From contig CANROB010000001.1 of NCBI GenBank assembly GCA_947632115.1, forward strand, positions 26,161 through 90,160: 64,000 nucleotides of DNA, read 5' to 3'. Made by a program: the position numbers and the translations under genes. The notes under the pieces were generated by a model. That model saw nothing but the letters and a program-made list of their open reading frames with translations. It did not search any database and was not told where the DNA came from. Source of the DNA: an uncultured Bacilli bacterium. Lineage in GTDB: Bacteria; Bacillota_I; Bacilli_A; RF39; UBA660. Position 1 is the stretch's first letter; every line of letters begins with the position of its first letter. This document shows, one piece after another, positions 2,601 through 47,969 of this stretch.

Positions 2601-2663
2601 CTTCTTTTTTTTCATATTTCTAAAACTTCTTCATATAGTTAAATGAAAGAAAGTAGGGAATAT

Positions 2664-4127
2664 ATGGAAAAAACGGATATTATAAAAAGTATAACAACAA
2701 GAACAGGTGGAGATTTATATTTAGGAGTAGTAGGTGCAGTGAGAACTGGTAAGAGTACCTTTATTAAGAAGTTTATTGAAAATTTGGTAGTACCTAATAT
2801 CAAAGATGAATATGAAAGAAAAAGATGCTTAGATGAAATCCCACAATCTGCACAAGGAAAAACCATTATGACAACAGAACCGAAATTTGTTCCAAGTAGT
2901 GCGGCCATGATTAAAATTGATGATTTCGAAACATCTGTTAGGTTAGTCGATTGCGTAGGTTATGTGATTGATGGGGCTAAGGGATATGAGGATGAAAATG
3001 GACCTAGAATGGTACGTACGCCTTGGTATGATGAAGAGATTCCTTTTGTTGAGGCTGCTGAGATTGGAACTGAAAAAGTGATACGGGATCACTCTAGTAT
3101 TGGAATTGTTGTGACGACAGATGCTTCTTTTGGAGAGATTCCAAGAAGTAGCTATGTAGAGGCAGAAGAAAGAGTGATAGGGGAACTTAAAAGCATTGGA
3201 AAACCCTTTATTGTTCTTTTAAATTCTGCTCATCCAATGTTACCGGAAACAGAAAATTTAGCGAATAAAATGAGGGAAGAATATCAAGTACCTGTTTTAC
3301 CTATTAGCGCTGAAAATTTAAATGAAAAAGATGTATATCAAATTTTAAAAGAAGCATTATACGAATTTCCTGTTTTAGAGGTAGAAGTCAATATGCCAGA
3401 TTGGATTGCTTGTTTAGAGCCTAACAATTGGCTTAAAAAAGTTTATATGGATAAGATTCGTGAAAGTGTTGTAGAAGTAGATAAACTAAGAGATATTGAT
3501 ACCATTACGAGACATTTTGAAGCTTGTGACTATATTACAAAATCTTATATTTCTAATGTAGATACTTCAACAGGGGTTGTGACGATTAATTTACAAGCAA
3601 GTGATGAACTATATAATCAAGTGTTAAAAGAGATTGTTGGTAGAGAAATATCTAGTAGGGCTGACATTATTTCTTTATTCCAAGAATATAATGAGGCAAA
3701 AACAGAGTATGACCATATTAAAGGAGCCCTAGCTATGGTTAAGAAAACGGGTTATGGGGTAGCTAGTCCAACATTACAAGATATGAAATTAGAGACCCCA
3801 GAAGTGATTAAACAGGGAAGCCGTTATGGTATTAAATTAAAAGCCGTTGCGCCTTCCATTCATATGATTCGTGTAGATGTGGAATCTACTTTTGAACCAA
3901 TCATTGGCTCTGAGGTACAGAGTAAAGAATTAATTGATTATCTCATGAAAGATCAAGATAATATATGGAAGAGTGAAATTTTTGGAAGAAGTTTAGATGT
4001 GATTGTAAAAGAAGGAATTCAGGCTAAGATTTCCTTAATGCCAGAAGGAGCACGATATAAACTTCAACAAACGTTATGTAAATTAGTCAATAAAGGATCT
4101 GGTAATTTATTTACTTTAGTCATTTAA
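2664..4127 (+). CDS. spoIVA: Stage IV sporulation protein A (SpoIVA), the spore-coat morphogenetic ATPase.
   Basis: The N-terminus MEKTDIIKSITTRTGGDLYLGVVGAVRTGKSTFIKKFIENLVVPNI matches the SpoIVA signature including the Walker A motif GAVRTGKST. Length is about 490 aa. A start at 2664 (MEK) is preferred over 2643. Confidence 0.85.
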   Translation: MEKTDIIKSITTRTGGDLYLGVVGAVRTGKSTFIKKFIENLVVPNIKDEYERKRCLDEIPQSAQGKTIMTTEPKFVPSSAAMIKIDDFETSVRLVDCVGYVIDGAKGYEDENGPRMVRTPWYDEEIPFVEAAEIGTEKVIRDHSSIGIVVTTDASFGEIPRSSYVEAEERVIGELKSIGKPFIVLLNSAHPMLPETENLANKMREEYQVPVLPISAENLNEKDVYQILKEALYEFPVLEVEVNMPDWIACLEPNNWLKKVYMDKIRESVVEVDKLRDIDTITRHFEACDYITKSYISNVDTSTGVVTINLQASDELYNQVLKEIVGREISSRADIISLFQEYNEAKTEYDHIKGALAMVKKTGYGVASPTLQDMKLETPEVIKQGSRYGIKLKAVAPSIHMIRVDVESTFEPIIGSEVQSKELIDYLMKDQDNIWKSEIFGRSLDVIVKEGIQAKISLMPEGARYKLQQTLCKLVNKGSGNLFTLVI

Positions 4128-4165
4128 AAAGACTTCACATCAATTTGATGTGAAGTCTTTTTTTA
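4128..4165. terminator. Bidirectional rho-independent terminator between the convergent genes spoIVA and ponA.
   Basis: aaaaagacttcacatcaatttgatgtgaagtcttttttt has a perfect 11-bp stem flanked by an A-run and a T-run. Confidence 0.7.
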
Positions 4166-6994
4166 AACCGTTGGTGTTTCTTGGTCTTCAGGATCTGGAT
4201 CTGTTGGAATGATAGGACTTCCATTACCGGTTGCTTGAATGGTTGCTCCATCACTCATATTGGTTTTAAATTTTGAATAACAAGTCTTAACGACTAGAGT
4301 AACATTTCCATATTGTCCTGACACAACATAATTTGTATTCGATGTCCAATCTAGCAAGGTTAATCCAGAATCGGTTTGAACGTAAATATTATATCCAAGA
4401 GTACCCAAGGTACTTACATTTTCGTTATAAATTTTATTGACATAAGAGTTGAGGGCACTACTTGTATTGAAAGCACTTTGATTAAGTTTTTTAATGACAT
4501 CTTTATTTAATGCATCTGGTGTATTAATAGGACTCCAAGATAGAGTAATGGTACCATCTAAATTAGAGGTAGCTTGTAGATTACTTACTTTATCCAGTTT
4601 AGCAAATCTAGTAGAAGTGGTAGCAGGTTCTGTTCCCGCTACAAAGTATTCTTCTTTAATATATTTCTTTGGTGTATATTCGCTTGGAAGCTGTAAAGTA
4701 GCAGAACCGGTTTCAATTTTTACTTTGGTTACCGTATCTGGCATCTTCCAATCGGTTTTATCCTTGAAGATTCCTTTAGCGACAGCTTGGAATAATCTAG
4801 TATGTTGCATACTAGCAAGTAAGTTGTATCCATCTGCAATCGAAGGATATCCATACCACATACCAATGGCATATTTGGTATTATAACCACAAACCCAATA
4901 ATGACCAACCGCTTTTGCAGGAAGGTTCCATTTTTTCTTGGTTGCGGCATCAAAGTTTGCTGTACCTGTTTTACCAGCGTAAGGAACCCCGTTAATATTT
5001 TTATATTTTCCTGAGTCAATACCATAAGCAGCGGCATCTTGTAACATATTGGTAACAAGATAAGCAGTAGAATCATTCATGACTTGTTTGGTTTCTTTGG
5101 AATTGGTAATCACCTCAGAGGTACCACCCATCACAATCTTTGTAACAGAATAAGGTTCTGTATAATATCCACCGTTTGCGAATGCTGCATAAGCAGCGGC
5201 CATAGAAAGAGGAGTTTCTCCTTCATAACCACCAATCGCATGGGCTTCGTGGAAATTACTTTCTGGGTGAAGACCTAACTTTTGAACGAACGTTTTAATG
5301 TCTGCCTTATTTAGTTTTTGGAATGTCTTTAAGGCTGGAATATTTCGTGATAATTTTAATTGTTGTCGAATGGTATCATATCCTCTAAAGGTACCATCAG
5401 CATTATTGATAGGAGTGCCATCACTATAGGTTATTTTCTCATCGGCAATAGGAGTTGCTGGAGACCAGTTCTCAAATTCAATCGCAGGGCCGTAATCATA
5501 AAGTGGTTTTGCTGTTGATCCAATTTGTCTTAAGTAATGTTCATCCGTTGCCCAGTTAATATTTCCGTCTACAGAGGTATCTCTATTTCCGCCAACAGCA
5601 ACGAGTGCTCCTGTATTGACATCGACAACGGCAATTCCGGCTTGGACTTTTTTGTTTTCCCATTTATAACTTTTTCCGGTCATGATTTTTCCAACATGAT
5701 ATTGTAGTGTTTTATCAAAGGTGGTATAAATTTTCATGGAAGTAAGTCTAGGATTTTCTCCTGTTAATTCTTTTACTTCTTCTACTACCGTATCAACAGC
5801 AGAACGAATCTCTCCGTCCATCGGATCGGCATTGGAAGTAACTCCTGTCCCCGTTACAATTTTATCAACCGTTAATTTCTTAGCGATATCATATTCTTTT
5901 TCGGTAATGTAACCATGTCTTTTTAATAAACCAAGAACGGTTATTCTTCTAGACTCAGCAGCTTCTGGATGGAAAAATGGATCATATCTAGAAGGAGCTT
6001 GATACATACCGGCTAAAAGAGCGGCTTCTGAGATATTGATATCCTTAGCGCTTTTTCCAAAATACATTTGGGCGGCAGCTTCTAGACCATAAGTAGAACC
6101 CATCTGGTTACTATTAATATAAAATTCAATAATTTCTTCTTTGGTATAAGTTGGCTCAATTTTAAACATTGCTACATAAATATCTTGAAATTTACGGATA
6201 ATTCCTTCCATACCTTCATCTTCTTTAGAAGTATAGGTATTTTTGGAAAGTTGCATGGTAAGGGTAGAAGCACCTCCACCTTCTCTTCCTCGGCTTAATA
6301 CTTGTTTAATAGAAGCTACTAAGAATCTTTGAAGGTCAAATCCATTATGTTGGAAAAATTTAGCATCCTCAGTAGCCACTAAGGCATTTAGATAAACCTC
6401 GGGTATTTCATCATACGTAATGATATCTCTTTTTTGTAGTCCAATCGTTGCCATAAGAGAGCCGTCTTTCCAATAAACGGTAGTTGGTTCGGTAGAATAT
6501 AATTTTTCAGGATTAAATTCTGGTGCGTGTTCTACAATATAAGAACAAAAAGCGGCGACACCAATCACACCTGCCATAAAACATAGGCAGCAGAAAATTA
6601 AGAAACATTGGAAAATTCGAAGAGCGATATGTCTTTTCTTTTTTTCTTTTTTTGGCTTTTCTTTTGTTTTTCCCTTTTTCTTCATTTCTTCTTCATCTCC
6701 TACTACTACAATTTCATCATCTTTCTTATATTCATGGACGATTTTATTTTCTTCCTTTTTAGGAAGTACTATTTTTTCTTCCTGTTTTTTCTTTTTTTCT
6801 TTTTGAATGTTATGGAATACCCTAGTTGCGATATCTTTAATTTCTACCCGAAAGAAAATCACATCTAAGATAAGTACCAAAAGAAAAGTTGGCAGAAATC
6901 CAATCGCTAGAGTACCAACGATTAGAACTAAAATGCTCATGATGATGACAACTAAGGATGTGGGATTTTTTAATTTTCTAGTTTTTGGTTTCAT
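4163..6994 (-). CDS. ponA: Class A penicillin-binding protein 1A/1B (glycosyltransferase GT51 plus transpeptidase), with an N-terminal extension containing an extra TM segment and a lysine-rich stretch, and a C-terminal FN3-like tail.
   Basis: GT51 motifs EDAKFFQHNGFD and GASTLTMQLSKN are present. Transpeptidase motifs are STAKP (SxxK), SYN-like and KTGTA. It sits in the recU-ponA operon arrangement as in B. subtilis. Confidence 0.85.
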   Translation of the reverse strand: MKPKTRKLKNPTSLVVIIMSILVLIVGTLAIGFLPTFLLVLILDVIFFRVEIKDIATRVFHNIQKEKKKKQEEKIVLPKKEENKIVHEYKKDDEIVVVGDEEEMKKKGKTKEKPKKEKKKRHIALRIFQCFLIFCCLCFMAGVIGVAAFCSYIVEHAPEFNPEKLYSTEPTTVYWKDGSLMATIGLQKRDIITYDEIPEVYLNALVATEDAKFFQHNGFDLQRFLVASIKQVLSRGREGGGASTLTMQLSKNTYTSKEDEGMEGIIRKFQDIYVAMFKIEPTYTKEEIIEFYINSNQMGSTYGLEAAAQMYFGKSAKDINISEAALLAGMYQAPSRYDPFFHPEAAESRRITVLGLLKRHGYITEKEYDIAKKLTVDKIVTGTGVTSNADPMDGEIRSAVDTVVEEVKELTGENPRLTSMKIYTTFDKTLQYHVGKIMTGKSYKWENKKVQAGIAVVDVNTGALVAVGGNRDTSVDGNINWATDEHYLRQIGSTAKPLYDYGPAIEFENWSPATPIADEKITYSDGTPINNADGTFRGYDTIRQQLKLSRNIPALKTFQKLNKADIKTFVQKLGLHPESNFHEAHAIGGYEGETPLSMAAAYAAFANGGYYTEPYSVTKIVMGGTSEVITNSKETKQVMNDSTAYLVTNMLQDAAAYGIDSGKYKNINGVPYAGKTGTANFDAATKKKWNLPAKAVGHYWVCGYNTKYAIGMWYGYPSIADGYNLLASMQHTRLFQAVAKGIFKDKTDWKMPDTVTKVKIETGSATLQLPSEYTPKKYIKEEYFVAGTEPATTSTRFAKLDKVSNLQATSNLDGTITLSWSPINTPDALNKDVIKKLNQSAFNTSSALNSYVNKIYNENVSTLGTLGYNIYVQTDSGLTLLDWTSNTNYVVSGQYGNVTLVVKTCYSKFKTNMSDGATIQATGNGSPIIPTDPDPEDQETPTV

Positions 6995-18388: not shown

Positions 18389-21300
18389 ATGTTTGTGAGC
18401 AATGAAGATAATAAGAAAAAGCAAACAGGAAATAGACGTGTAAATAGTAAGTCTAATACTACGAAAAATACTGCTAATGCTAAAAACACTGCAAATAATG
18501 TAAGTAGTAAACCTCCTGTTGCTAGAGAGATTAGTGCTAATCAAACACCGAAAAGAGAACCTAGTTCTATTCGTCAAGAAGTTGCTGTTCCAAAGAAGAA
18601 AAAATCAAATGGAAAAGCGATAGAGTTAGGAGTTATCTTTATTCTATTGGTTGTGTTAATTCTTCTCTTATTGTCATTCTGCCATAAGGATAGCTATGAA
18701 GTATCTTTTATGTCTGACGGAAAAGAATATACTTCAGATACAGTTCGTAAAGGTAGCGACTTAGAAGAACCAGAAGCTCCTACAAAAGAGGGATATAAAT
18801 TCTTAGGTTGGTATCTTGATGGTGAAAAGTATGATTTCAGTAAAGAAGTAACAAAAGATATGAAGCTCGAAGCAAAATGGCAAATCAATACCTATACTGT
18901 AACAATTGATGACGGTATGGGAAATGTTACAAAACAAGAAATAGAGTATAATCAAAAAGTAAAAGAACCATCCGTTTCTGAGAGAAAAGGATATCATTTA
19001 GATGGATGGTATGTAAAAAATAATAAATTCGATTTTAGCAAAGGAATTAAAGAGGATATCACTATCGAAGCAAGATGGCTTGAAAACGAGAAAGTAAGTT
19101 ATCGTGTAGAGCATTATCTTATGGGATTAGATGGAGAATATGACTCTTATGATAAAGTAGATTTACTATCAGAGTATAAAGGAAGTACGGTTACCCCTAG
19201 TACGCATAATTATACTGGATTTAAGACTCCTAGTAGAACTACCGTTGAATTAGCAGATGATGGAAGCACGGTTGTTAAATATTATTATTCTAGAAATAAA
19301 TATACCTTAACCTTAAAAGGCGATGAGGGTGTTTCTTCTCTTAAAGGAAAAGGAACTTATTACTATGGTGAAAAAGTCACTGTTGATGCGAGTGTTAAAG
19401 AAGGATTTAAATTTGCTGGTTGGTCTTCTAAAGTAGTAAAAGGAAACTATACTATGCCAGCATCTAATGTTACTTTAACAGCGAAAACTAATCCAATTGA
19501 GTATACGATTGTTTATACCGATGGTGTGAATGTTAAAGAAGAAAAACATAAATATACGGATGTCTTCCAATTAGCTGGTGGAGATTTATTCCAAAAAGAA
19601 TATCGTATTAGTTATGATTATGGATACGGTAGTACAGTTGATGTAGAATCACCAAAAGCTACTTATGATAGTTGGATTCAAGATGAAAACATGACTTATG
19701 ATTTAGAGGAGAAAGTATCTAAATTAACGACAGTAGATGGAGATAAAATTACTCTTACTTTAAAATGGAGTTATCCAACTCTTAAGACTATCGAAAGAGA
19801 TTATTATGATTTCTTGGGATGGGTAGATAAAGAGGGAAATCCTGTTACTGAGATTAATGAAAAAACGCCACAAAATTTAGAACTTACGGCTACTTGGAAA
19901 GTATCTAATAATACGATTGTCTTTGAATCAAATGGTGGATCTTTTGTTACACCTTTAACCGGAGAAACTGGTGATCCTGTAGAGAAACCTAAAGATCCAA
20001 CAAGAGTAGGATACACATTTGCGGGATGGTATAGTGATTCAGAACTTAGTCAAGAATATGAATTTACAACCATTCCAGAAGAAGGAATTACGGTTTATGC
20101 TAAATGGGATATTATTCATTATAATTTAACATTTGATGAAACTTCTTATGAAAAGTGTGAAGACTGTGATTCTGTACCTAACACTTACACCGTAGAAGAT
20201 GAACCAATTCAGTTACCAACACCAGTAAAAGAAGGATATACTTTTGCAGGATGGGCTTACGAAGTAGAAAATGATGAAACAGGAGAAAAGGAAGAAGTAA
20301 ATGTAGGTACAAAGTTTACTGTTCGTCCAGAGAATACTGAGTTAAAGGCTATTTGGACATACGAATTAGTTCTTGATCCTAAGGGTGGTACTTTAGTAGA
20401 AGGAAAAGAAGTACCAACGATTACTTTCTACTATGGAAAAGATAATAGCATTCCAACCGGTGATTTTTATGAAAAAGAAATCAAAGTTACTTGGAAGTTT
20501 GATGAAAGTAACCAAACAGTAGATACTTATCACCCAACAGTAAAATGTTGGAAAGTAGGAGAGTCTTGTTACACGCCAGGACAAACAGTAAATAATACTT
20601 TTACTCCTGTTAATGGCAAAGTAACACTAGAAGCTACTTATGAAGTTACCATTGAAAAGTTAAAGACAGGAACCAAAGAAGGAAAAGTTCTTGGTGATTG
20701 GTTAAAAGAAGAGGAAAAAGTAACAGAACCTCTTAAGGTATCAGAAGATACAGTTTTAACTGCTAAATGGTATGATGAAATGACTTTAAAAACTTTTGAT
20801 GAGAAAATAAAAGCTACTTTAAGTGATTTTACGACTAGTGTAAATACGAAGACCAATACCGTTTTTGTAGAGGCAGAAGAAAATAAAAAGGCCACCGAAG
20901 GTTTAGAAAATCTTGTAAAAAATATTGCTTCATTAATTAAAGATGCGACGGTTGATGAAATCGATCTTATCTATGGCGGAGAAACTTTTGCCTTAGATAC
21001 GAACAATGATGAGTCTATTACTACTGCCATAAAGAATGCGCTTAATAAAATATTAAATACTCAGAATAATAATCTTGACAGTAAGACAATGAAAGATTTA
21101 GATGGAAAAGAAATTTCTGTCAAAGTTACTTTAGGGGATGAATACAGAACTTCTTCTGGAGCAAAAGAATTTACTTATCATCTTCACTTTGGTAAGAAGG
21201 CTATTGCTAGTGAAACATTTAATGCAGCTGCTAAAAACATTATGGAAAGTAATATCAATAGTCAAGGAAAGAAATTAGAGAAATACATATTATCTGTTCA

Positions 21301-21766
21301 GGATAATCAATTAACATTCTCTTTCTATCATGGCACAAATACAGTATATGAGACTTGTATGAGTGCTGGATTAAAGACTGCTTTCCAAAATCTATTTAAG
21401 ATAGAGGGAATTGAATATGTTACTTTAACATTTACAAATCCATCTGGAAAAGTCATGACGGTAGATGCAAATGCTGATAATGTTTCAGAAGCTCATTGGT
21501 TAGACTTTGCTATTGGCTTCTTAGATCCGTTTGAAGAAGCTATTGGAAAAGATGCTTTTAAACTAACGAATGATGATTTAAAGTTATTTACAGAGACAAA
21601 AGGAGCTCTTATGGTAGAGGTACATACTTCTCCTGATTACAAGTTTGGAGAAGGATTTACGAAAGTAGAAACGGATAAAGAGGATGGTACCCAATACCTT
21701 TCTTATGAAATTAAGTTTGCGCCAGTACAAACAGAATCAGCTCCTAATGCAGGAGAAGGAAACTAG
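18389..21766 (+). CDS. Giant (1125 aa) type-II membrane-anchored Flg_new-repeat surface protein, paralog 3, with the same conserved C-terminal domain.
   Basis: There is a 90-aa basic cytoplasmic tail and a TM segment LGVIFILLVVLILLLLSF. EEPEAPTKEGYKFLGWY is identical to paralog 1 over 11 aa. Flg_new repeats and YRVEHYL modules are present. The C-terminus is GLKTAFQNLF…SPDYKFGEGFTKVE…YEIKF. Confidence 0.8.
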   Translation: MFVSNEDNKKKQTGNRRVNSKSNTTKNTANAKNTANNVSSKPPVAREISANQTPKREPSSIRQEVAVPKKKKSNGKAIELGVIFILLVVLILLLLSFCHKDSYEVSFMSDGKEYTSDTVRKGSDLEEPEAPTKEGYKFLGWYLDGEKYDFSKEVTKDMKLEAKWQINTYTVTIDDGMGNVTKQEIEYNQKVKEPSVSERKGYHLDGWYVKNNKFDFSKGIKEDITIEARWLENEKVSYRVEHYLMGLDGEYDSYDKVDLLSEYKGSTVTPSTHNYTGFKTPSRTTVELADDGSTVVKYYYSRNKYTLTLKGDEGVSSLKGKGTYYYGEKVTVDASVKEGFKFAGWSSKVVKGNYTMPASNVTLTAKTNPIEYTIVYTDGVNVKEEKHKYTDVFQLAGGDLFQKEYRISYDYGYGSTVDVESPKATYDSWIQDENMTYDLEEKVSKLTTVDGDKITLTLKWSYPTLKTIERDYYDFLGWVDKEGNPVTEINEKTPQNLELTATWKVSNNTIVFESNGGSFVTPLTGETGDPVEKPKDPTRVGYTFAGWYSDSELSQEYEFTTIPEEGITVYAKWDIIHYNLTFDETSYEKCEDCDSVPNTYTVEDEPIQLPTPVKEGYTFAGWAYEVENDETGEKEEVNVGTKFTVRPENTELKAIWTYELVLDPKGGTLVEGKEVPTITFYYGKDNSIPTGDFYEKEIKVTWKFDESNQTVDTYHPTVKCWKVGESCYTPGQTVNNTFTPVNGKVTLEATYEVTIEKLKTGTKEGKVLGDWLKEEEKVTEPLKVSEDTVLTAKWYDEMTLKTFDEKIKATLSDFTTSVNTKTNTVFVEAEENKKATEGLENLVKNIASLIKDATVDEIDLIYGGETFALDTNNDESITTAIKNALNKILNTQNNNLDSKTMKDLDGKEISVKVTLGDEYRTSSGAKEFTYHLHFGKKAIASETFNAAAKNIMESNINSQGKKLEKYILSVQDNQLTFSFYHGTNTVYETCMSAGLKTAFQNLFKIEGIEYVTLTFTNPSGKVMTVDANADNVSEAHWLDFAIGFLDPFEEAIGKDAFKLTNDDLKLFTETKGALMVEVHTSPDYKFGEGFTKVETDKEDGTQYLSYEIKFAPVQTESAPNAGEGN

Positions 21767-25569: not shown

Positions 25570-25598
25570 TTGATTTCTGTGAATTAAGAAGAGTATAA
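25570..25598 (+). promoter_or_regulatory. nrdD promoter (TTGATT, 17-nt spacer, TATAAT), preceded by a roughly 330-bp extremely A-rich tract.
   Basis: -35 ttgatt at 25570-25575 and -10 tataat at 25593-25598. The upstream region 25241-25560 is poly-A tract-rich and contains a TGTGAA half-site. Confidence 0.4.
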
Positions 25599-25625
25599 TT
25601 CTAGCTAGAAGGTAGGAGGATTAAG

Positions 25626-27938
25626 ATGTCAGATTCATATACAAAAATCACTCTTGACGTCATCAAGAGAAATGGCAAAAAAGTAGACTTTGATGCAAGT
25701 AAAATTGCTCTTGCTATTAAAAAAGGTTTTGATAGCGTAGTTACAACAAATGAAAATGCAGAGGAAGAAAGAAAGGTATATACCGGAAAAGACGTTAATA
25801 AAGTCTATTTAGGTGTCATTAAGGCAATTGAGAAAAAATATAAAGAGGAAGCCAAAATTAAAATTGAAGAAATTCAAGATTTAATTGAAGAAGAACTAGG
25901 TCGCCAAGGATATGACGATGTTCGTGCTTCTTTCTCAGAATATCGGGAAAGAAGAAATCAATCTCGGGAATTATTTTCAGATGACAAAAGACTTCATAAA
26001 TTTTTGAAAACTTTGGAAGGTCTTGGACTAAAATCTGCTAATGAAGATGATACCAAAAGAGAAAATGCGAATATCGATGGTGATAGCGCTATGGGAACGA
26101 TGCTTCAATATGGTAGTACCGTTTCTAAGGAATTCGCTAAAGCTTACTTAATGAAGAAAAGATTCAGTCAAGCTCATGATGAGGGAGATATCCACATTCA
26201 TGATATGGACTTCCTTGCTATGGGAACAACTACTTGTATGCAAATTGAACTTGACCGCTTATTTAAAAATGGCTTTTCAACAGGACATGGACATCTAAGA
26301 ACTCCTAATAGTATTGGTTCTTATAGTGCCCTTGCCGCTATTGCTATTCAATCTAATCAAAATGATCAACACGGAGGTCAATCTATTCCAGCTTTTGATT
26401 ATTATATGGCACCTGGTGTTTTGAAGACATTCAAAAAAGAGTTCAAACAACAAATTTATGATTTATTAGATTATGAAGATTTATTCCCATTTATCAATAT
26501 GGACCGCATTGCGAAAGAAATAGATAAATTACCTACTTTAGAATTTGATATTGATAGGTTTGAACCAATTTATCAAGATTCTGAACAAATTAAAAGATTG
26601 TTTGTAAAGTCTTATGAAAGAGCTTTTGCAAAAACGGATAGACAAACTTATCAAGCCATGGAAGCTTTTGTTCATAATTTAAATACAATGCATTCTAGAG
26701 CGGGAGCTCAAGTACCATTTTCATCTATTAACTTTGGTACGGATACTTCTGCTGAAGGAAGAATGGTTATCCGTAATTTCCTAGAGGCAACTTATGCTGG
26801 GTTAGGAAAAGGGGAAACACCAATTTTCCCAGTATCTATTTTTAAAGTAAAAGAAGGAGTCAATTACAATCCTACAGATCCAAACTATGATTTATTTAAA
26901 TTAGCTTGTAAGGTTTCTGCAAAAAGATTGTTCCCTAACTTCTCTTTCCTAGATGCTCCATTTAATTTAGAGTATTATAAACCAGGAGATTTCAGAACAG
27001 AAGTTGGATATATGGGATGCCGTACTCGTGTTATGGCAGATGTAACAGATTTAAATAATCAGACTACGGGTGGTCGTGGAAACCTATCTTTTACTTCTAT
27101 CAATTTGCCAAGACTTGGTATCAAACATGGTATTTGCTTACATGAAAGAGATAAGGCAGATATGAAAGGTTTCTATGAAGATCTAGGAGAAATGATGGAT
27201 TTAGTAAGAGATCAACTTCTTGAGAGATTTGAAATTCAATGTAACAAAAGAGTGTATAACTTCCCATTCTTGCTAGGTTCAGGAGTATGGACAGATGGAG
27301 ATAAATTAAAACCAACTGACCGTTTAAGAAAAATCTTAAAACATGGTACATTAACAATTGGATTTATTGGCCTTGCTGAAACTTTAAAGGCACTTATTGG
27401 AAAACATCATGGAGAAAGTGAAGAAGCTCAAAAGTTAGGCCTTGAAATCATTAAATTCATGAGAAATAGATGTACGGAATATTGTAAGAAATGGAATTTA
27501 AACTTCACATTGATTGCAACTCCTGCAGAGGGATTATCTGGAAGATTTGTAAATATTGATAAAGCCATTTATGGAAATATCAAAGGAGTAACGGATAGAA
27601 GTTATTATACGAATTCTTTCCATGTTCCAGTATATTACAATATTAGTATTAAGAAAAAAATTGAGTTAGAAGCACCATATCATGCTTTAACAAATGGTGG
27701 ACATATCTCTTATATCGAGTTAGATGGAGATACCGTTCAAAATGTAGAAGCATTTGAAAGTGTTATTCGCTTGATGAAAGAATCTGGAATTGGTTATGGA
27801 GCAATTAACCATCCAGTTGATCGAGATCCTGTATGTGGATATGTTGGGGTAATTGGTGATGTGTGCCCAGGATGTGGACGCAAAGAGTTTGAAACAGTAC
27901 CACTTGAAGAAATAAAATCATTAAATTGTGGATGTTAA
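25626..27938 (+). CDS. nrdD: Anaerobic ribonucleoside-triphosphate reductase (class III RNR) large polypeptide. It ends after the Zn-ribbon and lacks the glycyl-radical tail.
   Basis: The N-terminal ATP-cone is KITLDVIKRNGKKVDFDASKIALAIKKGF. Length is 770 aa. The C-terminal Zn-ribbon is NHPVDRDPVCGY…DVCPGCG…LNCGC, followed by a stop. Confidence 0.8.
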   Translation: MSDSYTKITLDVIKRNGKKVDFDASKIALAIKKGFDSVVTTNENAEEERKVYTGKDVNKVYLGVIKAIEKKYKEEAKIKIEEIQDLIEEELGRQGYDDVRASFSEYRERRNQSRELFSDDKRLHKFLKTLEGLGLKSANEDDTKRENANIDGDSAMGTMLQYGSTVSKEFAKAYLMKKRFSQAHDEGDIHIHDMDFLAMGTTTCMQIELDRLFKNGFSTGHGHLRTPNSIGSYSALAAIAIQSNQNDQHGGQSIPAFDYYMAPGVLKTFKKEFKQQIYDLLDYEDLFPFINMDRIAKEIDKLPTLEFDIDRFEPIYQDSEQIKRLFVKSYERAFAKTDRQTYQAMEAFVHNLNTMHSRAGAQVPFSSINFGTDTSAEGRMVIRNFLEATYAGLGKGETPIFPVSIFKVKEGVNYNPTDPNYDLFKLACKVSAKRLFPNFSFLDAPFNLEYYKPGDFRTEVGYMGCRTRVMADVTDLNNQTTGGRGNLSFTSINLPRLGIKHGICLHERDKADMKGFYEDLGEMMDLVRDQLLERFEIQCNKRVYNFPFLLGSGVWTDGDKLKPTDRLRKILKHGTLTIGFIGLAETLKALIGKHHGESEEAQKLGLEIIKFMRNRCTEYCKKWNLNFTLIATPAEGLSGRFVNIDKAIYGNIKGVTDRSYYTNSFHVPVYYNISIKKKIELEAPYHALTNGGHISYIELDGDTVQNVEAFESVIRLMKESGIGYGAINHPVDRDPVCGYVGVIGDVCPGCGRKEFETVPLEEIKSLNCGC

Positions 27939-27960
27939 AGAAAGAAGGAGGAATGATTTA

Positions 27961-28137
27961 TGGAAAAATTAGTTGGTGAAGGTGTAGGTTTTGAAAGAAT
28001 TAGAAGAGTAACAGGATATCTTTCAGGAGATGTAAAACGTTTTAACGATGGAAAGAGAGCAGAAGAAAAAGATAGAGTAAAACATTCTGGAATCAATGAA
28101 GTAAAAAGCTCTATGAAAGTCTGCTCAGAAGCAAAAT
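27961..28137 (+). CDS. Stand-alone NrdD glycyl-radical domain, a 58-aa GrcA-like small subunit of class III RNR.
   Basis: The motif FERIRRVTGYLSGDVKRFNDGKRAEEKDRVKH matches the NrdD C-terminal glycyl radical loop (RVxGYL…NxGKxxE…RVKH). It has its own RBS GAAGGAGGA 7 nt upstream. Stops in all three frames separate it from nrdD. Its stop overlaps the nrdG start (taATGa). Confidence 0.65.
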
Positions 28138-28138
28138 A

Positions 28139-28699
28139 ATGACAATTCGTTTAGCAAGTGACTTACAACCAGATAGTGTCGTAGATGGAACTGGCATTAG
28201 GACAGTTATATGGACACAAGGATGTGGACATGACTGTCCTGGATGTCATAATCCAGAAACCCATGATTTTGAAGGTGGATGGGTAATTGAGGTTCAGGAT
28301 ATCTTAGAAGAAATAGATGAACTAGAAGCTCAAACTGGTGTTACCTTTAGTGGGGGAGATCCTTTCTATCAACCGGATTCTTGTGCAGTTATTGCCAAAT
28401 ATGTGCATAAAAAGAAAATGGATGTCTGGTGTTATACTGGCTTTATATACGAAGATCTTCTTGCTATGAGTAAAAAAAATCCAGCTATTATGGATTTCTT
28501 AAAGGAAATTGATATCTTAGTGGATGGCCCTTTTATCATGGCAAAACATAGTTATAACCTAAAATTTAGAGGTTCTAGTAATCAACGAATTATTGATGTG
28601 AAAAAGAGCCTAAAAGAAAAAAAAGTAGTCATAGCTATGGTTGACGATGTAGAAATTGATTTCAATCGCGGAAGAAAAAAAGAAGGACTTTATATATGA
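28139..28699 (+). CDS. nrdG: Anaerobic ribonucleotide reductase activating protein (radical SAM).
   Basis: GCGHDCPGCHNPETHDF corresponds to the CxxxCxxC radical-SAM cluster site of the NrdG type. Length is 186 aa. Confidence 0.85.
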   Translation: MTIRLASDLQPDSVVDGTGIRTVIWTQGCGHDCPGCHNPETHDFEGGWVIEVQDILEEIDELEAQTGVTFSGGDPFYQPDSCAVIAKYVHKKKMDVWCYTGFIYEDLLAMSKKNPAIMDFLKEIDILVDGPFIMAKHSYNLKFRGSSNQRIIDVKKSLKEKKVVIAMVDDVEIDFNRGRKKEGLYI

Positions 28700-28795
28700 T
28701 AAGGAATGAGGAATCATTCCTTTTTTGGTGAAATAGAAAGTCGTTTCTATTATTTTAAAAGCATGAAAAAAGAAGGGGATTTGCTCCTCTTCCTT

Positions 28796-30220
28796 TTAGT
28801 CATTGTCTTTTTCTTTTTCAGATTTGATAATCTTTCCGGTAACAGCGTTAATTTCATAGTCATATTCATACCCGTTATATTTAAAATCAACACTATATTC
28901 TTGATCTTCGCGGTCTAATTCTACCTCTAGATTGGAAGGATTTTTAACTCCAGCATGATTAAGAGCAATTTCTTTTGCTTTCTCTGAAGAAATAAAGTTG
29001 GCATTATTATTAGAAGATTGATTATCATTATCTTTTTCTTTTTCAGATTTGATAATCTTTCCAGTAATAGCGTTAATTTCATAGTCATATTCATACCCGT
29101 TATATTTAAAATCAACACTATATTCTTGATCTTCGCGGTCTAATTCTACTTCTAGATTAGAAGGATTTTTAACTCCGGCATGATTAAGAGCAATTTCTTT
29201 TGCTTTCTCTGAAGAAATAAAGTTAGCGTTATTACTATTAGAAGATTGATGATCATTATCTTTTTCTTTATAAGAGGTAATAATGTCTCCTGTTAAAGCA
29301 TTAATTTCATAATCGTATTCATAATCTTTATCGTTAAACTCTACTTCATAAAGGATAAGCCCATCTTCAGTATCAAATTCTACTTCTAAATTAGAAGGAT
29401 TTTTTACTCCCGCATGAGTAAGGGCAATACTTTTTGCTTTTTCTTCTCCGATATAAGCTTTGGTACTAGCAGTTCCTTTTTTTTCAACGGTGGTTAAACT
29501 ATTTTCTTTTCCTTGCGTTAAAACATTAATTTCATTAATAGATAAATTTACTAAATCTTCTATTTTAAGAAGAGAGTTATTTTTGACAACATCTAAAATT
29601 AATTCTGCTTTTCCTAAAGAAATATGATATTTTTGTGCTAATGATTCCGCTTCTTTTGAAGTAGAAAGTGTTTGACTTAAAACAGATCCTTCAATCTTAT
29701 CATTATTTAAAAGAGTATCAATCTTTGCAACTAACTTTTGGCGAAGTTCTTCTGCTTTTTTAGTGTCATTGTTATCAACAGAAATAAGGATAGAGTTTGA
29801 TAAATCATCTAGATATCCTTTGGTTACCATGGAACCGATAATAGCATTTAGAGCAATATCGATATCAACTCCTTTAAAATCCATATCCTTTAGAATCTCT
29901 TTCGCATCATCATTTAAAGCTTGCCATTTTACAATTTTCTCTTTTTTATTTACTTGTAATTCAATGCTTGGATTAACATCAATATCAATAGTAGAATCTA
30001 CTAAATAATTTCTTTGGTAGGTATAAAAACCTCCTCCTAACATGAATAGGAATAAAAATGCTATCGCAAATTTCCACAACCACCCCTGTTTTTTGGTTCT
30101 TTTTTCCATATATTTTTTCCTTTCTTCTTCTTTGCTTTTTGAGAGGATTTTTTGAAATTCATCAGGAACTTGTTCATCAAATACACGATATATTTGGTTT
30201 TTTATTTCTAAATCTTTCAT
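28796..30220 (-). CDS. Putative anti-sigma factor: an N-terminal cytoplasmic domain, one TM segment, and an extracellular part with three PepSY-like repeats.
   Basis: It overlaps the upstream ECF sigma gene by 4 nt. The TM segment is WKFAIAFLFLFMLGGGFY. There are three repeats of …EKAK(E/S)IAL(N/T)HAGVKNPSNLEVE(L/F)D…YEYDYEINA(I/V/L)TG.IIKSEKEKDND. Confidence 0.6.
   Translation of the reverse strand: MKDLEIKNQIYRVFDEQVPDEFQKILSKSKEEERKKYMEKRTKKQGWLWKFAIAFLFLFMLGGGFYTYQRNYLVDSTIDIDVNPSIELQVNKKEKIVKWQALNDDAKEILKDMDFKGVDIDIALNAIIGSMVTKGYLDDLSNSILISVDNNDTKKAEELRQKLVAKIDTLLNNDKIEGSVLSQTLSTSKEAESLAQKYHISLGKAELILDVVKNNSLLKIEDLVNLSINEINVLTQGKENSLTTVEKKGTASTKAYIGEEKAKSIALTHAGVKNPSNLEVEFDTEDGLILYEVEFNDKDYEYDYEINALTGDIITSYKEKDNDHQSSNSNNANFISSEKAKEIALNHAGVKNPSNLEVELDREDQEYSVDFKYNGYEYDYEINAITGKIIKSEKEKDNDNQSSNNNANFISSEKAKEIALNHAGVKNPSNLEVELDREDQEYSVDFKYNGYEYDYEINAVTGKIIKSEKEKDND
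28805..29265. repeat. Near-identical (about 97%) tandem direct duplication of about 230 bp, encoding PepSY repeats 2 and 3 of the anti-sigma protein.
   Basis: Two copies of tttttcagatttgataatctttcc(g/a)gtaa(c/t)agcgttaatttcatagtcatattcatacccgttatatttaaaatcaacactatattcttgatcttcgcggtctaattctac… are adjacent. Confidence 0.8.
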
Positions 30221-30771
30221 TTAGATGCCCCCATTTCTTTTAATTTTTTGATTGCTCGATTATATTTGGATAGAATCGTGGATACTTTACTATCTAGGAT
30301 TTCGGCAATTTCACGATGTTTAAATCCCCATAAAAGATGAAGTAAAATAATTGTCCGCTCTTCTTCTTTAAGCTGTTCCATTAAAACTTTAAAAAATAAT
30401 TGATCTTCTTCATTGGAAAAGGAGAATGTATTATCTTCTAATTCGATAGTATTCTTTCTTTTCCGTATTTTAGAAAGTGCTTTGTTTTTCGTAATGGTAA
30501 AAATCCAGTTCATGGGTTTTGTTCCTTCTTGATAAGAATCAATTTGGTTATAAAGAGTGATAAAAACATCTTGAACGTTATCTAAAGCATCCTCTTGATT
30601 TTTTAAAATCGTTAAACTATAACCATAGATAGGCGCCTTTAAAAGAATATATAGTTCATGAAAAGAATTTTCATCTTTGATGTTTAAAAGCAAACTTTCT
30701 AAAGAAGCATGGTCTCTATCTGTAGTTTTTGACTGTTCCATCTTTTTGCTCCTCTCATTATAACAACGCAT
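30217..30771 (-). CDS. ECF-type RNA polymerase sigma-70 family factor.
   Basis: 184 aa. Region 2 is DVFITLYNQIDSYQEGTKPMNWIFTITKNKALSKIRKRK, and region 4 HTH is REIAEILDSKVSTILSKYNRAIKKLKE. It is co-oriented with and overlapping the anti-sigma gene. Confidence 0.7.
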   Translation of the reverse strand: MRCYNERSKKMEQSKTTDRDHASLESLLLNIKDENSFHELYILLKAPIYGYSLTILKNQEDALDNVQDVFITLYNQIDSYQEGTKPMNWIFTITKNKALSKIRKRKNTIELEDNTFSFSNEEDQLFFKVLMEQLKEEERTIILLHLLWGFKHREIAEILDSKVSTILSKYNRAIKKLKEMGASK

Positions 30772-44561: not shown

Positions 44562-44770
44562 CATAAAGCGCTGAAAAAGAGTAGTAGTAGTGGACTATTC
44601 GTAGAGAGAAAGTGGTTGGTGAAAACTTTTAATAGAAAACTATGAACTCGCTTTGGAGCTGCTCGTAAGAGACGTTAATCTGCGTTAAAGAATGAGGGCA
44701 TAATAAAAGTATTATGAAGAAGGGTGGTACCGCGATTCGTCGTCCCTTCATTCATGATACTTTTTTTAGT
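44562..44770 (+). promoter_or_regulatory. T-box riboswitch leader, probably with a leucine specifier (CUC), controlling a small membrane protein gene and leuS.
   Basis: AGAGAG (GA motif) in stem I. A CUC codon sits in gaaCUCg. The T-box sequence is gaaGGGTGGTACCGCGattcgtcgtccc at about 44719-44746, followed by a terminator stem gaaggg…cccttc and a T-run at 44760-44766. Confidence 0.75.
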
Positions 44771-44779
44771 AGGAGGATT

Positions 44780-45154
44780 ATGAAAGAAGTCATTATATGG
44801 TTTGTGCTGATGGTGATTATTTACTTATTTTATGAATTATTTGTCATTCATAAAGAAAAAGCACTAGAAAATATGAAAGAGGGAAAAGAGTTGACACTAT
44901 TATCCCGTAAGTATCACTTAGATTATCAAAAGTTAAATCTAAAATCTGTTGTGCGTACGGTGGCGTTAACTAATTCTTTCATTATTTCAACGGTAGTTAC
45001 CATAGGTTATCTATTACAATTTTGGATTTCTAATTTTTTCCTTTGGACACTAGCTGTATTAGGAATCGGGATGATCCTTTTAGTCCCTTGCATTCTTATC
45101 TTTTATAGTTTCATTGGAAAACATTATCAAAAAATACAAGAAGGAGGAAAATAA
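44780..45154 (+). CDS. Small (124 aa) integral membrane protein between the T-box and leuS.
   Basis: The ATG at 44780 has an AGGAGG RBS. Three predicted TM helices are present. Its stop overlaps the leuS RBS. The 44714 start in the ORF track would overlap the T-box and is unlikely. Confidence 0.5.
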   Translation: MKEVIIWFVLMVIIYLFYELFVIHKEKALENMKEGKELTLLSRKYHLDYQKLNLKSVVRTVALTNSFIISTVVTIGYLLQFWISNFFLWTLAVLGIGMILLVPCILIFYSFIGKHYQKIQEGGK

Positions 45155-45155
45155 A

Positions 45156-47969
45156 ATGTATTATGATTTTAAAAAAATAGAAGCAAAATGGCAAAACTAT
45201 TGGGATGAACATCATACGTTTGAAGCCGTTACGGGTAGTGAGAAAAAACCTTACTATGTTTTGGTAGAATTCCCTTATCCATCTGGATCTGGTTTACATG
45301 TAGGTCATGTTCGTAGCTATACTGCGCAAGATGCGATTGCTCGTATGAAAAGAATGCAAGGATATAACGTTCTTTATCCAATGGGATGGGATGCTTTTGG
45401 AGCGCCAGCTGAGCAATACGCTATTCAAAATCACATTCATCCAAAGGATGCCGTTCGTGAAAATATTCAAACATTCAAAGGACAAATGAAATCTCTTGGA
45501 TTCTCTTTTGATTGGAGTCGGGAGTTTTCAACGACTGATCCTGAGTATTATAAATGGACGCAGTGGCAATTCTTACAATTTTATAAACATGGAATGGCCT
45601 ATAAAGATACGGTACCAGTCAATTGGTGCCCCAACTGTAAAACGGTTCTTTCAAATGAAGATGCGGCTGGTGGCGTTTGTGAAAGATGTGGAACGAATGT
45701 TGTTCAAAAAGAAAAATCCCAATGGATGCTTCGGATGTCTGACTATTCTGAGGACTTATTAAAGGGATTAGACGATACGAATTTTGCCGAAAAGGTAAAA
45801 TTAGGTCAAATTAACTGGATTGGTAAATCGATTGGTGCCCATGTTGATTTTAAGATTGAAGGATACGATAAAACATTTACCGTCTTTACGACACGTTGCG
45901 ATACGCTTTTTGGAGCAACTTACTGTGTTTTAGCGCCAGAGCATTCTTATGTGGATGAAATTACAACAGAAGAGCATAAAGAAGAAGTTCGTGCTTATAA
46001 AGAAGCTTGTACCCTTAAAAATGAGATGGAAAGAACAGAACTCAATAAAGAAAAAACAGGAGTATTCACGGGTGCTTATGCTATTAATCCTGTAAATGAC
46101 GAGAGAATTCCTATTTATATTAGTGACTATGTTCTAGCAAGTTATGGAACAGGAGCGATTATGGCTGTTCCTGCTCATGATGATAGAGACTATGAGTTTG
46201 CTAAAAAGTTTGAAATTCCAATTATTCAAGTACTAGAGGAAGTAACAGGTAAGGCTCATGAAAATGAAACCGAAAAGAAAAGTATTGTAGCTATCATCCA
46301 TGATAAAAAAGAGGATAAATATTTAACGATTAATTGGAAAGAAAAGGGTGGACGCTTATTTATTGGCGGAACCATCCAAGAAGGAGAGACTCCTTTAGAA
46401 TGCGCTCTTCGCGAGATTAAGGAAGAAACGGGTTATACTGACTTAGAGTTTATCTATGAAGGATTTAAGATTAACCATCATTACTATGCTTATAATAAGG
46501 ATAAATATTTTAATATTGAAGCAACTCCATTCTTATTTGAGTTAAAAAGTGATACCAAAGTAGAACAGATGTTAAATGACGATGAGGTCTTTGATGTAGA
46601 ATGGGTTAGTAAAGAGGTTATCATGAAAGAAATACAAGATGAATTACATGCAAAAAGTTATGAGTATGTAACGAATCCTGGTGCGATGACAGGAGATGGA
46701 ACCCATACAAATTCTAGTTTCTTGAATGGATTAGATAAAGAAGAAGCTATCAATAAAATGATTGCTTGGTTAGAAGAGCATCATTGTGGAACGAAAAAGA
46801 TTAACTATAAGATGAGAGACTGGATTTTCTCTCGTCAAAGATTCTGGGGAGAACCTATTCCAATGATTCATTGTGAAAAATGTGGTTGGGTTCCTATGAA
46901 AGAAGAGGATTTACCACTTCTTCTTCCTGATGTTGCGGAATATGAACCTACCGATAATGGAGAAAGTCCACTTGCGAAAATTACCGATTGGGTGAATACG
47001 ACTTGTCCAAATTGTGGGGGGACAGCAACAAGAGAGACCGATACCATGCCAAACTGGGCTGGATCTAGTTGGTATTTCCTACGCTTTATGGATGCTCATA
47101 ATGATAAAGAATTTGCTTCTTTAGACGCGATGAAGTATTGGAACCGAGTAGATTGGTATAATGGTGGTATGGAACATACCGCTCGTCACTTACTCTATGC
47201 TCGTTTCTGGGTACAGTTCTTATATAATATTGGTCTTGTTCCTAATAAAGAAATGATTTGGACGCGTGTTAGTCATGGTATGATTTTAGGATCTAATGGC
47301 GAGAAGATGAGTAAGTCAAAGGGAAATGTTATTAATCCAGATGATATTGTAAAAGAAATGGGAGCAGATGCTCTTCGTACGTATGAAATGTTTATTGGTG
47401 ACTATGAAAAGGATGCATCTTGGTCCACGAATGGTTTAAAAGGATGTAAGAAATTCCTTGACCGTATTTGGAGATTACAAGAAAAGTTAAACGATAAAGA
47501 AGGTTATACGGAAGAGACCCTTATTCATCAAACGATTCGAAAAGTTACGAATGACCTTACTAGTATGAAATATAATACAGCTGTCTCTGCTTTGATGATT
47601 CTTTTAAATGAATTAGAGAAAAAAGATTCTATTACCAAACAGGATTTGCGTACTTTCATTCATCTTTTAAATCCGATTGCGCCTCATATTACAGAGGAGA
47701 TAAACGAAGTAAGTGGTTTAGGAGAGATGCTTGCTAGTTCTCCATGGCCAACTTATGATGAAGCGAAAACGGTAGAAGAGTCTTACGAATTAGTAGTTCA
47801 AGTAAACGGAAAAGTAAGAGGAAAAATGACAGTATCTACAGATGCGACGGAGGAAGAGATGAAAGAACTTGCGCAATCTATTGATAATGTAAAAAATTAC
47901 TTAGATGGTCATGAAATTGTTAAAATGGTTGTTATTCCTAAAAAATTAGTAAATATTGTCATTCGCTAA
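45156..47969 (+). CDS. leuS: Leucyl-tRNA synthetase carrying an inserted complete Nudix hydrolase domain.
   Basis: N-terminus MYYDFKKIEAKWQNYWDEH, with HVGH and KMSKS motifs. An insertion of about 135 aa (nt about 46231-46690) contains a perfect Nudix box GGTIQEGETPLECALREIKEETGY (Gx5Ex7REUxEExGU). The start at 45156 has an AAGGAGG RBS. Confidence 0.85.
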   Translation: MYYDFKKIEAKWQNYWDEHHTFEAVTGSEKKPYYVLVEFPYPSGSGLHVGHVRSYTAQDAIARMKRMQGYNVLYPMGWDAFGAPAEQYAIQNHIHPKDAVRENIQTFKGQMKSLGFSFDWSREFSTTDPEYYKWTQWQFLQFYKHGMAYKDTVPVNWCPNCKTVLSNEDAAGGVCERCGTNVVQKEKSQWMLRMSDYSEDLLKGLDDTNFAEKVKLGQINWIGKSIGAHVDFKIEGYDKTFTVFTTRCDTLFGATYCVLAPEHSYVDEITTEEHKEEVRAYKEACTLKNEMERTELNKEKTGVFTGAYAINPVNDERIPIYISDYVLASYGTGAIMAVPAHDDRDYEFAKKFEIPIIQVLEEVTGKAHENETEKKSIVAIIHDKKEDKYLTINWKEKGGRLFIGGTIQEGETPLECALREIKEETGYTDLEFIYEGFKINHHYYAYNKDKYFNIEATPFLFELKSDTKVEQMLNDDEVFDVEWVSKEVIMKEIQDELHAKSYEYVTNPGAMTGDGTHTNSSFLNGLDKEEAINKMIAWLEEHHCGTKKINYKMRDWIFSRQRFWGEPIPMIHCEKCGWVPMKEEDLPLLLPDVAEYEPTDNGESPLAKITDWVNTTCPNCGGTATRETDTMPNWAGSSWYFLRFMDAHNDKEFASLDAMKYWNRVDWYNGGMEHTARHLLYARFWVQFLYNIGLVPNKEMIWTRVSHGMILGSNGEKMSKSKGNVINPDDIVKEMGADALRTYEMFIGDYEKDASWSTNGLKGCKKFLDRIWRLQEKLNDKEGYTEETLIHQTIRKVTNDLTSMKYNTAVSALMILLNELEKKDSITKQDLRTFIHLLNPIAPHITEEINEVSGLGEMLASSPWPTYDEAKTVEESYELVVQVNGKVRGKMTVSTDATEEEMKELAQSIDNVKNYLDGHEIVKMVVIPKKLVNIVIR

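Follow-up and report, generated by a model that had tools for sequence, protein, structure and literature searches.

Class III (anaerobic) ribonucleotide reductases (RNRs) consist of NrdD and its activase NrdG, which makes a glycyl radical with S-adenosylmethionine (SAM). The NrdD loop that bears this radical must sit in the barrel of the enzyme, next to the thiyl cysteine. It belongs to the glycyl radical domain (GRD), composed of a Zn site, the loop and a tail, and in fused NrdD this domain shows high mobility, up to full disorder in the dATP-inhibited states (PMC11226230). Oxygen cleaves a glycyl-radical chain at the radical glycine (PMC3019208, PMC13450708), and O2-cleaved pyruvate formate-lyase (PFL) is restored by the activated small proteins GrcA and Y06I (PMC8683613). 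Reviews to June 2026 place the radical glycine on the barrel's own chain in every characterised glycyl radical enzyme (GRE), with GrcA/Y06I as the sole detachable copy and other spare parts as a matter of speculation (PMC13450708, PMC8683613); a 2026 review knows spare parts for formate lyases only (PMC13450708). In the full-text literature searched, with subscription-only papers outside its coverage, neither a split NrdD nor a spare part for NrdD was found described. Here, we analyse 64,000 nucleotides (nt) of DNA from an uncultured Bacilli bacterium (GCA_947632115.1, contig CANROB010000001.1, positions 26,161 to 90,160), hereafter the window, in which the glycyl-radical loop of NrdD is encoded by a separate open reading frame (ORF) of 59 amino acids (aa) between nrdD and nrdG.

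From the sequence evidence, we propose that the large ORF (hereafter the core) and the small ORF (the peptide) would form an obligate two-polypeptide class III RNR with a cheap and exchangeable radical subunit, and we put the probability of this reading at roughly 80%.

Results

Core and peptide cover complementary parts of NrdD

The two ORFs divide the NrdD family models between them. On the NCBIfam model NF005497 (746 positions), the core matches positions 3-715 (1021 bits against a cut-off of 764) and the peptide positions 712-744. On the Pfam model NRDD (PF13597, 562 positions), the matches cover positions 1-534 (E 4e-191) and 533-562 (E 1.3e-7, over the gathering score), respectively. The core has an N-terminal ATP-cone (residues 12-111, PF03477), the NxN flap as ENAN (residues 146-149) and the alpha/beta barrel with Cys204 and the thiyl loop YMGC465RTR. 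It aligns with residues 9-707 of the Prevotella copri NrdD chain 8p23 and also with NrdD of phage T4, with YMGC465RTR on the MGCR of both enzymes and Cys204 on Cys79 of T4. The sequence of the Met463-x-Cys465 loop suggests formate-dependent chemistry of the NrdD1 type, Wei et al. 2014 reportedly being the basis for this link. The peptide aligns with residues 707-740 of the same P. copri chain. Its Gly19 corresponds to the radical Gly711 (as defined in PMC11226230), a match that assumes four extra N-terminal residues in 8p23, as the chain has 743 residues and the paper counts 739.

A glycyl-radical loop in cis is a canonical feature of NrdD that the 770-aa core lacks, its loop being found on the 59-aa ORF. 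A loop of the RVxGY type was searched for throughout the large ORF, and no complete loop was found further upstream either. A weak PF01228 match at core residues 674-734 is below the threshold (E 0.14) and precedes the Zn ribbon. The putative Zn ribbon of the core comprises three of the four canonical cysteines, and Asp734 stands in place of the first (opposite CLDCGY...CPKCG in P. copri and CFTCGS...CSICG in T4). This replacement of the first cysteine (DRDPVCGY) is common to fused relatives too and is therefore a trait of the subfamily. Beyond the ribbon, the core continues into a tail that short-linker fused NrdDs lack and whose first residues repeat the ancestral linker motif E-x-E-x-V-P-L. 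The tail consensus across 81 loci (see below) is RkEFe.vPlE.....c.C. The core ends with CxC (...SLNCGC, window 27924-27935), which is kept in most of these loci and missing in locus L083 and in the split cores of Clostridia and phages. The peptide (MEKLVGEGVGFERIRRVTGYLSGDVKRFNDGKRAEEKDRVKHSGINEVKSSMKVCSEAK) is composed of a lead-in (MEKLVGEGVG), the loop (FERIRRVTG19YLSGDVKRFNDGKRAEEKDRVKH) and a variable tail.

The initial annotation, made from the DNA letters, had placed the glycyl-radical loop on a separate small ORF of 58 aa between nrdD and nrdG. The separate ORF is confirmed by the complementary coverage of NF005497 and by its own Shine-Dalgarno (SD) sequence and ATG, its length being corrected to 59 aa. 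The annotation also had NrdD stopping immediately after the Zn ribbon, which did not hold: in the light of fused relatives, CPGCG marks the end of the ribbon, after which the core runs on for 19 residues (RKEFETVPLEEIKSLNCGC). Likewise, not the entire GRD is detached as had been claimed, only the half that comprises the glycine loop and the C-terminal tail, and the Zn-ribbon half remains on the core.

Conservation of the split across related genomes

One genome per GTDB species was scanned, which gave 340 stretches with a relative. The best 80 were examined, so that 81 loci are compared when the window is included. These 80 genomes are nearly all gut metagenome-assembled genomes (MAGs) labelled Bacilli or Tenericutes, including 'Ca. 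Scybalousia'. As in the window, nrdD is split in all 80 related species genomes. The stop codon of nrdD precedes the loop in every locus (TAA in 56, TAG in 25) and the core is devoid of any glycine loop in 81 of 81, from which it follows that the peptide is obligatory here. The spacer between nrdD and the peptide gene measures 10-56 nt, often with several stops, and the frame offset between the two genes is 0, 1 or 2 in 18, 26 and 37 loci, respectively. A GGAGG-type SD nevertheless lies 5-9 nt before an ATG at the homologous position in all 81 loci. Downstream, nrdG overlaps the peptide gene by 1 nt in 40 loci and by 4 or 11 nt in 12, and in the remaining loci the two genes are 0 to +8 nt apart.

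The median ratio of nonsynonymous to synonymous substitution rates (dN/dS) of the peptide is 0.11 (3195 locus pairs), against a ratio of the corresponding proportions (pN/pS) of 0.21 for the initial 45 codons of nrdG at these loci. Purifying selection acts on the peptide and also on the core tail. Among 58 database homologues of the peptide, 24 positions are invariant. The same peptide is found in an nrdD(770)-59 aa-nrdG(186) layout on contigs of four independent metagenome assemblies. In one MAG (JAZTXB01), a split locus occurs on two contigs (L030 and L041), with peptides that differ slightly, which is possibly a strain mixture or a duplicated operon.

A small-protein family in bacteria and phages

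A peptide profile was searched against 1.84 billion representative proteins and matched 2410 clusters at E ≤ 1e-3 and 1444 at E ≤ 1e-10. The best 150 clusters are 45-193 aa in length, all with a Met start and all but one without Zn ribbon. A database search yielded 2046 peptide homologues, the best 120 of which are all 54-83 aa. The peptides come in two flavours, namely the window type (RRVTGYLsGDV) and a more diverse type (type ii, RRITGYLVGTxDRFNNAKRAEE). A restriction of the family to the clade of the window was considered and rejected, based on the representative-protein search and the context of its matches. When the diverse-type peptide was used as query, cultured Clostridia were among the matches listed. 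The product of 61-68 aa in these Clostridia is labelled 'anaerobic ribonucleoside-triphosphate reductase' or 'hypothetical protein' at NCBI; the family is thus mis-annotated or un-annotated. Both Agathobaculum sp. Marseille-P7918 and Intestinibacillus massiliensis (Table 1) encode the peptide between an nrdD of 773-784 aa and nrdG, and their cores too end after the Zn ribbon and a tail. A bacterial stand-alone peptide of 78 aa (P0247; L088 2598-2834 and L089 1944-2180) has no nrdD or nrdG within 5 kb; its flanking genes are three for dynamin-like GTPases and one for a multi-[4Fe-4S] ferredoxin-like protein.

At least 544 viral contigs in IMG/VR encode a stand-alone glycyl-radical peptide of the NrdD type. 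The phage peptides (L085-L087, L090-L169) are 45-90 aa long and share the motif [VI]G.GV.FERIRRITGYLVGT.DRFNNAKRAEE.DRVKH. In 78 of the 80 contigs examined out of these (at least) 544, neither nrdD nor nrdG was detected within 6 kb of the peptide (tblastn, E ≤ 1e-3). The neighbouring genes match PHROGs for tail fibre, large terminase, endolysin, internal virion protein and RtcB. Of three type ii peptides placed on long contigs, two follow tail-fibre/baseplate genes of prophages and the third lies in a bacterial locus next to ferredoxin-like and dynamin-like genes, with no nrdD or nrdG nearby in any of the three. These hundreds of contigs with a peptide and no detected nrdD or nrdG nearby fit an exchangeable part similar to GrcA and Y06I. 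By analogy with Y06I of T4, the phage peptide appears to be an auxiliary metabolic gene for class III RNR.

Some phages do encode a core. Phage contig L161 has a core without the loop, two ORFs of 93 aa, the peptide and nrdG, in that order, and contig L100 has such a core with the peptide 1.8 kb downstream. The cultured Eggerthella phage EL753P1 (OP172808.1, L170 647-4084) has a split-type core with a tail (CPQCHRKEFEAVPEE) that resembles that of the window. Its annotated nrdD of 952 aa is without glycine loop and carries an intein-like insertion of ~1 kb exactly at the position of the thiyl cysteine. A peptide frame (...KEYGEGVGFERIRRI / TTGYLTGSADRWNDAKKAELRDRVKHGK) lies ~0.5 kb downstream of this core and is broken by a frameshift, the loop-encoding part being unannotated; no Rfam intron matched the gap at E ≤ 0.01. 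Large Clostridioides difficile phages have an ordinary fused nrdD.

Fused relatives and possible intermediates

To trace the origin of the split, an artificially re-fused C-terminus was used as query, as natural fused proteins should outrank either half. Of the 120 best matches, 99 are natural fused C-termini of the same subfamily, which follow the pattern NHPVDRDPVCGYxGIIGDxCPxCGRxExDGVxFERIRRITGYLVGT.... The Cys-to-Asp replacement and the GEGVxF lead-in were candidates for split-specific traits and were rejected as such, because both are found in fused relatives. To judge from these sequences, the GEGVxF lead-in of the peptide is the former, ancestral linker. Five fused proteins (P0403, P0406, P0410, P0414 and P0425) have insertions of 25-100 aa between Zn ribbon and glycine loop, flanked by the core-tail motif EGExV[SP]xxxLxxL and a second copy of GEGVxF. 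Such long-linker proteins look like intermediates, in which the linker would first have been duplicated and expanded, with stop, SD and ATG gained later.

Over the last ~115 residues of the core, a short region and not a phylogeny, the core of the window is 88% identical to the fused protein P0404 (labelled Bacilli bacterium) and 74% to the split cores of Clostridia, and the split core of Agathobaculum is 96% identical to the fused protein P0503. Each split lineage is thus closest to a fused protein, which indicates, as far as sequence comparison can tell, that fission or re-fusion occurred more than once and hence that the cis and trans forms would be functionally interchangeable. Separately, in protein P0130 (175 aa) the peptide sequence (residues 1-43) runs straight into NrdD from residue ~634 to its end; a shared TEGL microhomology has probably given rise to a chimeric assembly here, circular permutation being the alternative.

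Organisation of the locus and the window

All parts of the locus are encoded on the + strand (Table 1). The nrdD and peptide ORFs share one frame, and two in-frame stops separate them, so that no single indel can fuse them. This conclusion of the initial annotation stands, although its premise of stops in all three frames does not, as the junction is free of stops in one of the alternative frames. The proposed operon order nrdD-peptide-nrdG and its stop/ATG overlap were both found: the TAA of the peptide gene and the ATG of nrdG share 1 nt (TAATG), hence translational coupling. A terminator is predicted only after nrdG, and none at the nrdD-peptide and peptide-nrdG junctions, which fits a single nrdD-peptide-nrdG transcript. 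Terminator-like sites in the scan number 9, against 1.8 expected in shuffles. Promoter-like sites show no excess (17 in the region against 15.8 in shuffles), and therefore the promoter assignment is tentative.

Table 1. Features of the split nrdD locus, of the rest of the window and of two cultured Clostridia. Positions are those of the 64-kb window unless a contig is named.
Feature	Position	Strand	Remarks
Promoter-like site TTGATT-18-TATAAT	25570..25599	+	10/12 match, ~27 nt upstream of nrdD ATG
nrdD SD GGTAGGAGG	25611-25619	+	read from sequence
nrdD core	25626..27938	+	770 aa, 88 kDa, stop TAA 27936-38
Zn-ribbon segment D734-P-V-C737-G-Y...C747-P-G-C750-G	27825..27878	+	first canonical Cys is Asp
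Core-specific C-terminal tail RKEFETVPLEEIKSLNCGC	27879..27935	+	residues 752-770 (19 aa); from comparison with fused and split cores
Spacer, 21 nt	27939..27959	+	GGAGG 27947-51 (8 nt before peptide ATG); second in-frame stop TGA 27954-56
Glycyl-radical peptide gene	27960..28139	+	59 aa; own GGAGG and ATG; family-model matches
nrdG, radical-SAM activase	28139..28699	+	186 aa; TIGR02491, 148.5 bits against cut-off 126
Terminator-like hairpin and T-run	hairpin 28701-28722, with T-run to 28730	+	directly 3' of nrdG; 9 pairs, then TTTTGG
SpoIVA; class A penicillin-binding protein	2643-4127; 4163-6994	- (penicillin-binding protein)
Proteins of 1958 and 1125 aa	11023-16899; 18389-21766	+	Listeria-Bacteroides repeats (Flg_new)
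474-aa protein	28796-30220	-	three near-identical ~65-aa repeats (...SSEKAKEIALNHAGVKNPSNLEVELDREDQEYSVDFKYNGYEYDYEINA.TGKIIKSEKEKDND)
184-aa gene	30217-30771	-	sigma-factor-like by eye
T-box leader	44562-44750
Leucyl-tRNA synthetase (LeuRS)	45114-47969	+	951 aa
Split operon, Agathobaculum sp. Marseille-P7918	GCA_900625105.1, L171 3102-6170		cultured; housekeeping-gene surroundings
Split operon, Intestinibacillus massiliensis	GCA_900155735.1, L174 2902-5971		cultured; housekeeping-gene surroundings

Several other features of the window stand apart from the RNR locus. The presence of SpoIVA and a class A penicillin-binding protein marks the organism as a walled, spore-forming Firmicute. The two Flg_new-repeat proteins are probably surface proteins. 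The 184-aa gene is overlapped by the 474-aa gene directly downstream, and the two may form an anti-sigma pair. LeuRS, which has a T-box leader, shows an apparent NUDIX domain (PF00293, E 7.5e-14, residues 392-515) inserted directly after the editing domain, which is unusual for this enzyme.

Discussion

The initial annotation had offered either a two-polypeptide enzyme or an oxygen-damage repair module, and both fit what was found, with no loop in the core in 81 of 81 loci and peptide-only genes in phages. In the proposed two-polypeptide enzyme, the core would contribute the ATP-cone, the barrel, the thiyl-radical Cys465 and the Zn ribbon, and the 59-aa peptide, made from its own SD and ATG, would contribute the loop, on which NrdG would turn Gly19 into the glycyl radical. 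The peptide would dock non-covalently and its loop would enter the barrel beside Cys465, in the way of the attached loop of the T4 and P. copri enzymes. Activation of the peptide off the enzyme may also be possible. Upon oxygen damage, only the 59-residue peptide would be sacrificed and then replaced on an intact 88-kDa core, and phages would supply extra peptide, thereby sustaining the dNTP synthesis of their host. We infer three things from the evidence above: the physical complex, the benefit of exchange or repair, and that NrdG activates the peptide, be it free or docked.

A number of points weigh against the proposed enzyme. The evidence for two polypeptides comes entirely from sequences, and the advantage of repair or exchange is drawn from the GrcA analogy. 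The conserved CxC at the end of the core, perhaps an extra Zn ligand or a redox pair, has no role assigned in the proposed enzyme. A predicted structure of core and peptide was uninformative (mean predicted local distance difference test score 53.6, predicted template modelling score 0.41), with the barrel unmodelled, as the alignment did not cover it. No second nrdD and no other RNR class was found among the ten largest ORFs of the window, to which this look was limited.

Given that both ORFs share a frame at a distance of 21 nt and that fused relatives exist in the subfamily, an assembly or sequencing artefact or a recent pseudogene might be suspected, the true gene being a single fused nrdD. 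Such a fusion would need two in-frame stops removed. Moreover, the identical locus in four independent assemblies and the same arrangement in cultured isolates make an assembly error untenable, and purifying selection on both the peptide and the core tail argues against decay, so that we give this explanation practically no weight. The shared frame could equally speak for a single polypeptide that is still made through stop readthrough, ribosomal frameshifting or hopping, RNA splicing, or protein trans-splicing by a split intein; the nrdD of T4 contains a group I intron, and that of the Eggerthella phage a seemingly intein-like insertion. The statistics of the 81 loci bear on both explanations alike: the spacers vary in length and stop content and all three frame offsets occur, always with a strong SD before a conserved ATG, by which artefact, readthrough and frameshifting are excluded. 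Two whole ORFs separate core and peptide in phage contig L161. For a split intein, the flanks of 19 and 10 aa are far below the sizes of the halves (about 100 and 35 aa), the Pfam search of both ORFs gave no intein domain, and no Rfam family reached the gathering score at the nrdD-peptide junction of the window. A single polypeptide by any of these routes is accordingly very improbable.

The remaining explanations accept two products and differ in the role of the peptide. It could be a spare part only, the working enzyme being encoded at some other place in the genome, as a full-length NrdD or an RNR of another class, and the core of the window being a truncated remnant that can be rescued. 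GrcA acts in this manner with PFL (PMC8683613), peptide-only genes occur in phages and in at least one bacterial locus, and the look for a second RNR covered the ten largest ORFs of the window. However, a remnant would not have kept all its catalytic residues, its ATP-cone, a new tail that is conserved and an operon that is tightly coupled, and this across two bacterial classes and at least 80 species; besides, the peptide is here always encoded between core and activase. We regard this option as unlikely. Alternatively, the peptide might be mainly regulatory, as a decoy or buffer for NrdG or as an off-enzyme store of the radical, in which case the phage copies would titrate or hijack the host NrdG. 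Free glycine-loop peptides are indeed substrates of activases, as the PFL-activating enzyme acts on peptides and on YfiD (PMC8683613), and phage peptide-only genes could equally be antagonists. Yet the core has no other glycine loop to take the radical, and therefore no thiyl radical would arise without the peptide in the barrel; in addition, the peptide shows no variation in those loop residues by which fused enzymes contact the barrel. A mainly regulatory role thus seems no more probable than that of a mere spare part.

The two-polypeptide RNR may extend well beyond the window. In its broadest form, the proposal would be a widespread trans class III RNR with an exchangeable radical peptide of ~6 kDa, which would be the only radical subunit in bacteria of at least two classes, with repeated interconversion of cis and trans forms and with hundreds of gut phages carrying the peptide gene alone, possibly to sustain host dNTP synthesis, e.g. 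after oxygen damage. For this broad version, we consider the odds to be even.

If true, this would be the first spare-part system for a GRE beyond PFL, with an NrdG able to activate a free peptide. A naturally split NrdD would imply that the covalent tether is dispensable, and would offer a clean system for the long-standing question of whether the activases of GREs act off the enzyme, in which the radical subunit can be labelled or mutated apart from the barrel. It also suggests a cheap repair of oxygen damage for an RNR class that is possibly the sole one in many strict anaerobes, and it reveals an un- or mis-annotated small-protein family of thousands of sequences that is apparently used by phages. 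As cultured hosts exist (Agathobaculum sp. Marseille-P7918 and I. massiliensis), direct testing is feasible.

Comparison with known systems

The canonical NrdD and NrdG of phage T4, Escherichia coli and P. copri (PDB 1H78/1H79, 8P23) have the ATP-cone, barrel, NxN flap, MGCR loop, Zn-ribbon segment (in the window with three of its four cysteines) and adjacent nrdG in common with the locus of the window, as well as the loop motif RRxTGYL...RFN.gK..E..DRVKH. In contrast to these enzymes, the glycine loop and C-terminal tail of the window are a separate gene product, the core is extended by a tail of 19 aa and the peptide by a lead-in of 10 aa, and Asp takes the place of the first Zn-ribbon cysteine, the last difference being shared by fused members of the subfamily.

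GrcA (YfiD) of E. coli and Y06I of phage T4 are likewise small stand-alone proteins with a glycyl-radical loop, of which phage copies exist, which replace only the part cleaved by oxygen and which are presumably activated by the activase of the parent enzyme. The peptide of the window is homologous to NrdD and not to PFL, and counts 59 aa against the 127 aa of GrcA. It has no match to PF01228 (Gly_radical) at E ≤ 1, and matches only PF13597 (NRDD) and the NrdD models of NCBIfam; it therefore falls outside the GrcA family, though it would be GrcA-like in its working. Whereas GrcA is a backup, the parent core has no loop of its own here, which would make the peptide an obligatory subunit. For the peptide-only genes of phages, rescue of a full-length, loop-bearing enzyme after O2 cleavage, as known from GrcA, is possible.

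Class I RNRs (NrdA/NrdB) also keep a stable radical on a separate, smaller subunit that docks on the catalytic subunit. In these, a ferritin-like protein harbours the radical, which is of the tyrosyl or metal-centre kind and is transferred over ~35 Å, whereas the 59-aa peptide would insert its loop into the barrel. The class Ia nrdA of Aeromonas phage Aeh1 is reportedly (Friedrich et al. 2007) split by the homing endonuclease mobE into two polypeptides that are functional. It shares with the window an RNR in two pieces, and phage contig L161 likewise has two ORFs between core and peptide; unlike the mobile-endonuclease split of this class Ia enzyme, the 21-nt junction of the window holds no endonuclease. 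Finally, in the split class II RNR NrdJa/NrdJb of Pseudomonas aeruginosa (Crona et al. 2015, cited in PMC9669993), the catalytic chain is also divided over two adjacent genes, with the C-terminal Zn-finger/redox region apart from the barrel. That RNR is B12-dependent and without glycyl radical, and its detached piece is large and carries a Cys pair for reduction. Other split RNRs are thus known, but none of them is known to detach the radical site of a glycyl radical enzyme.

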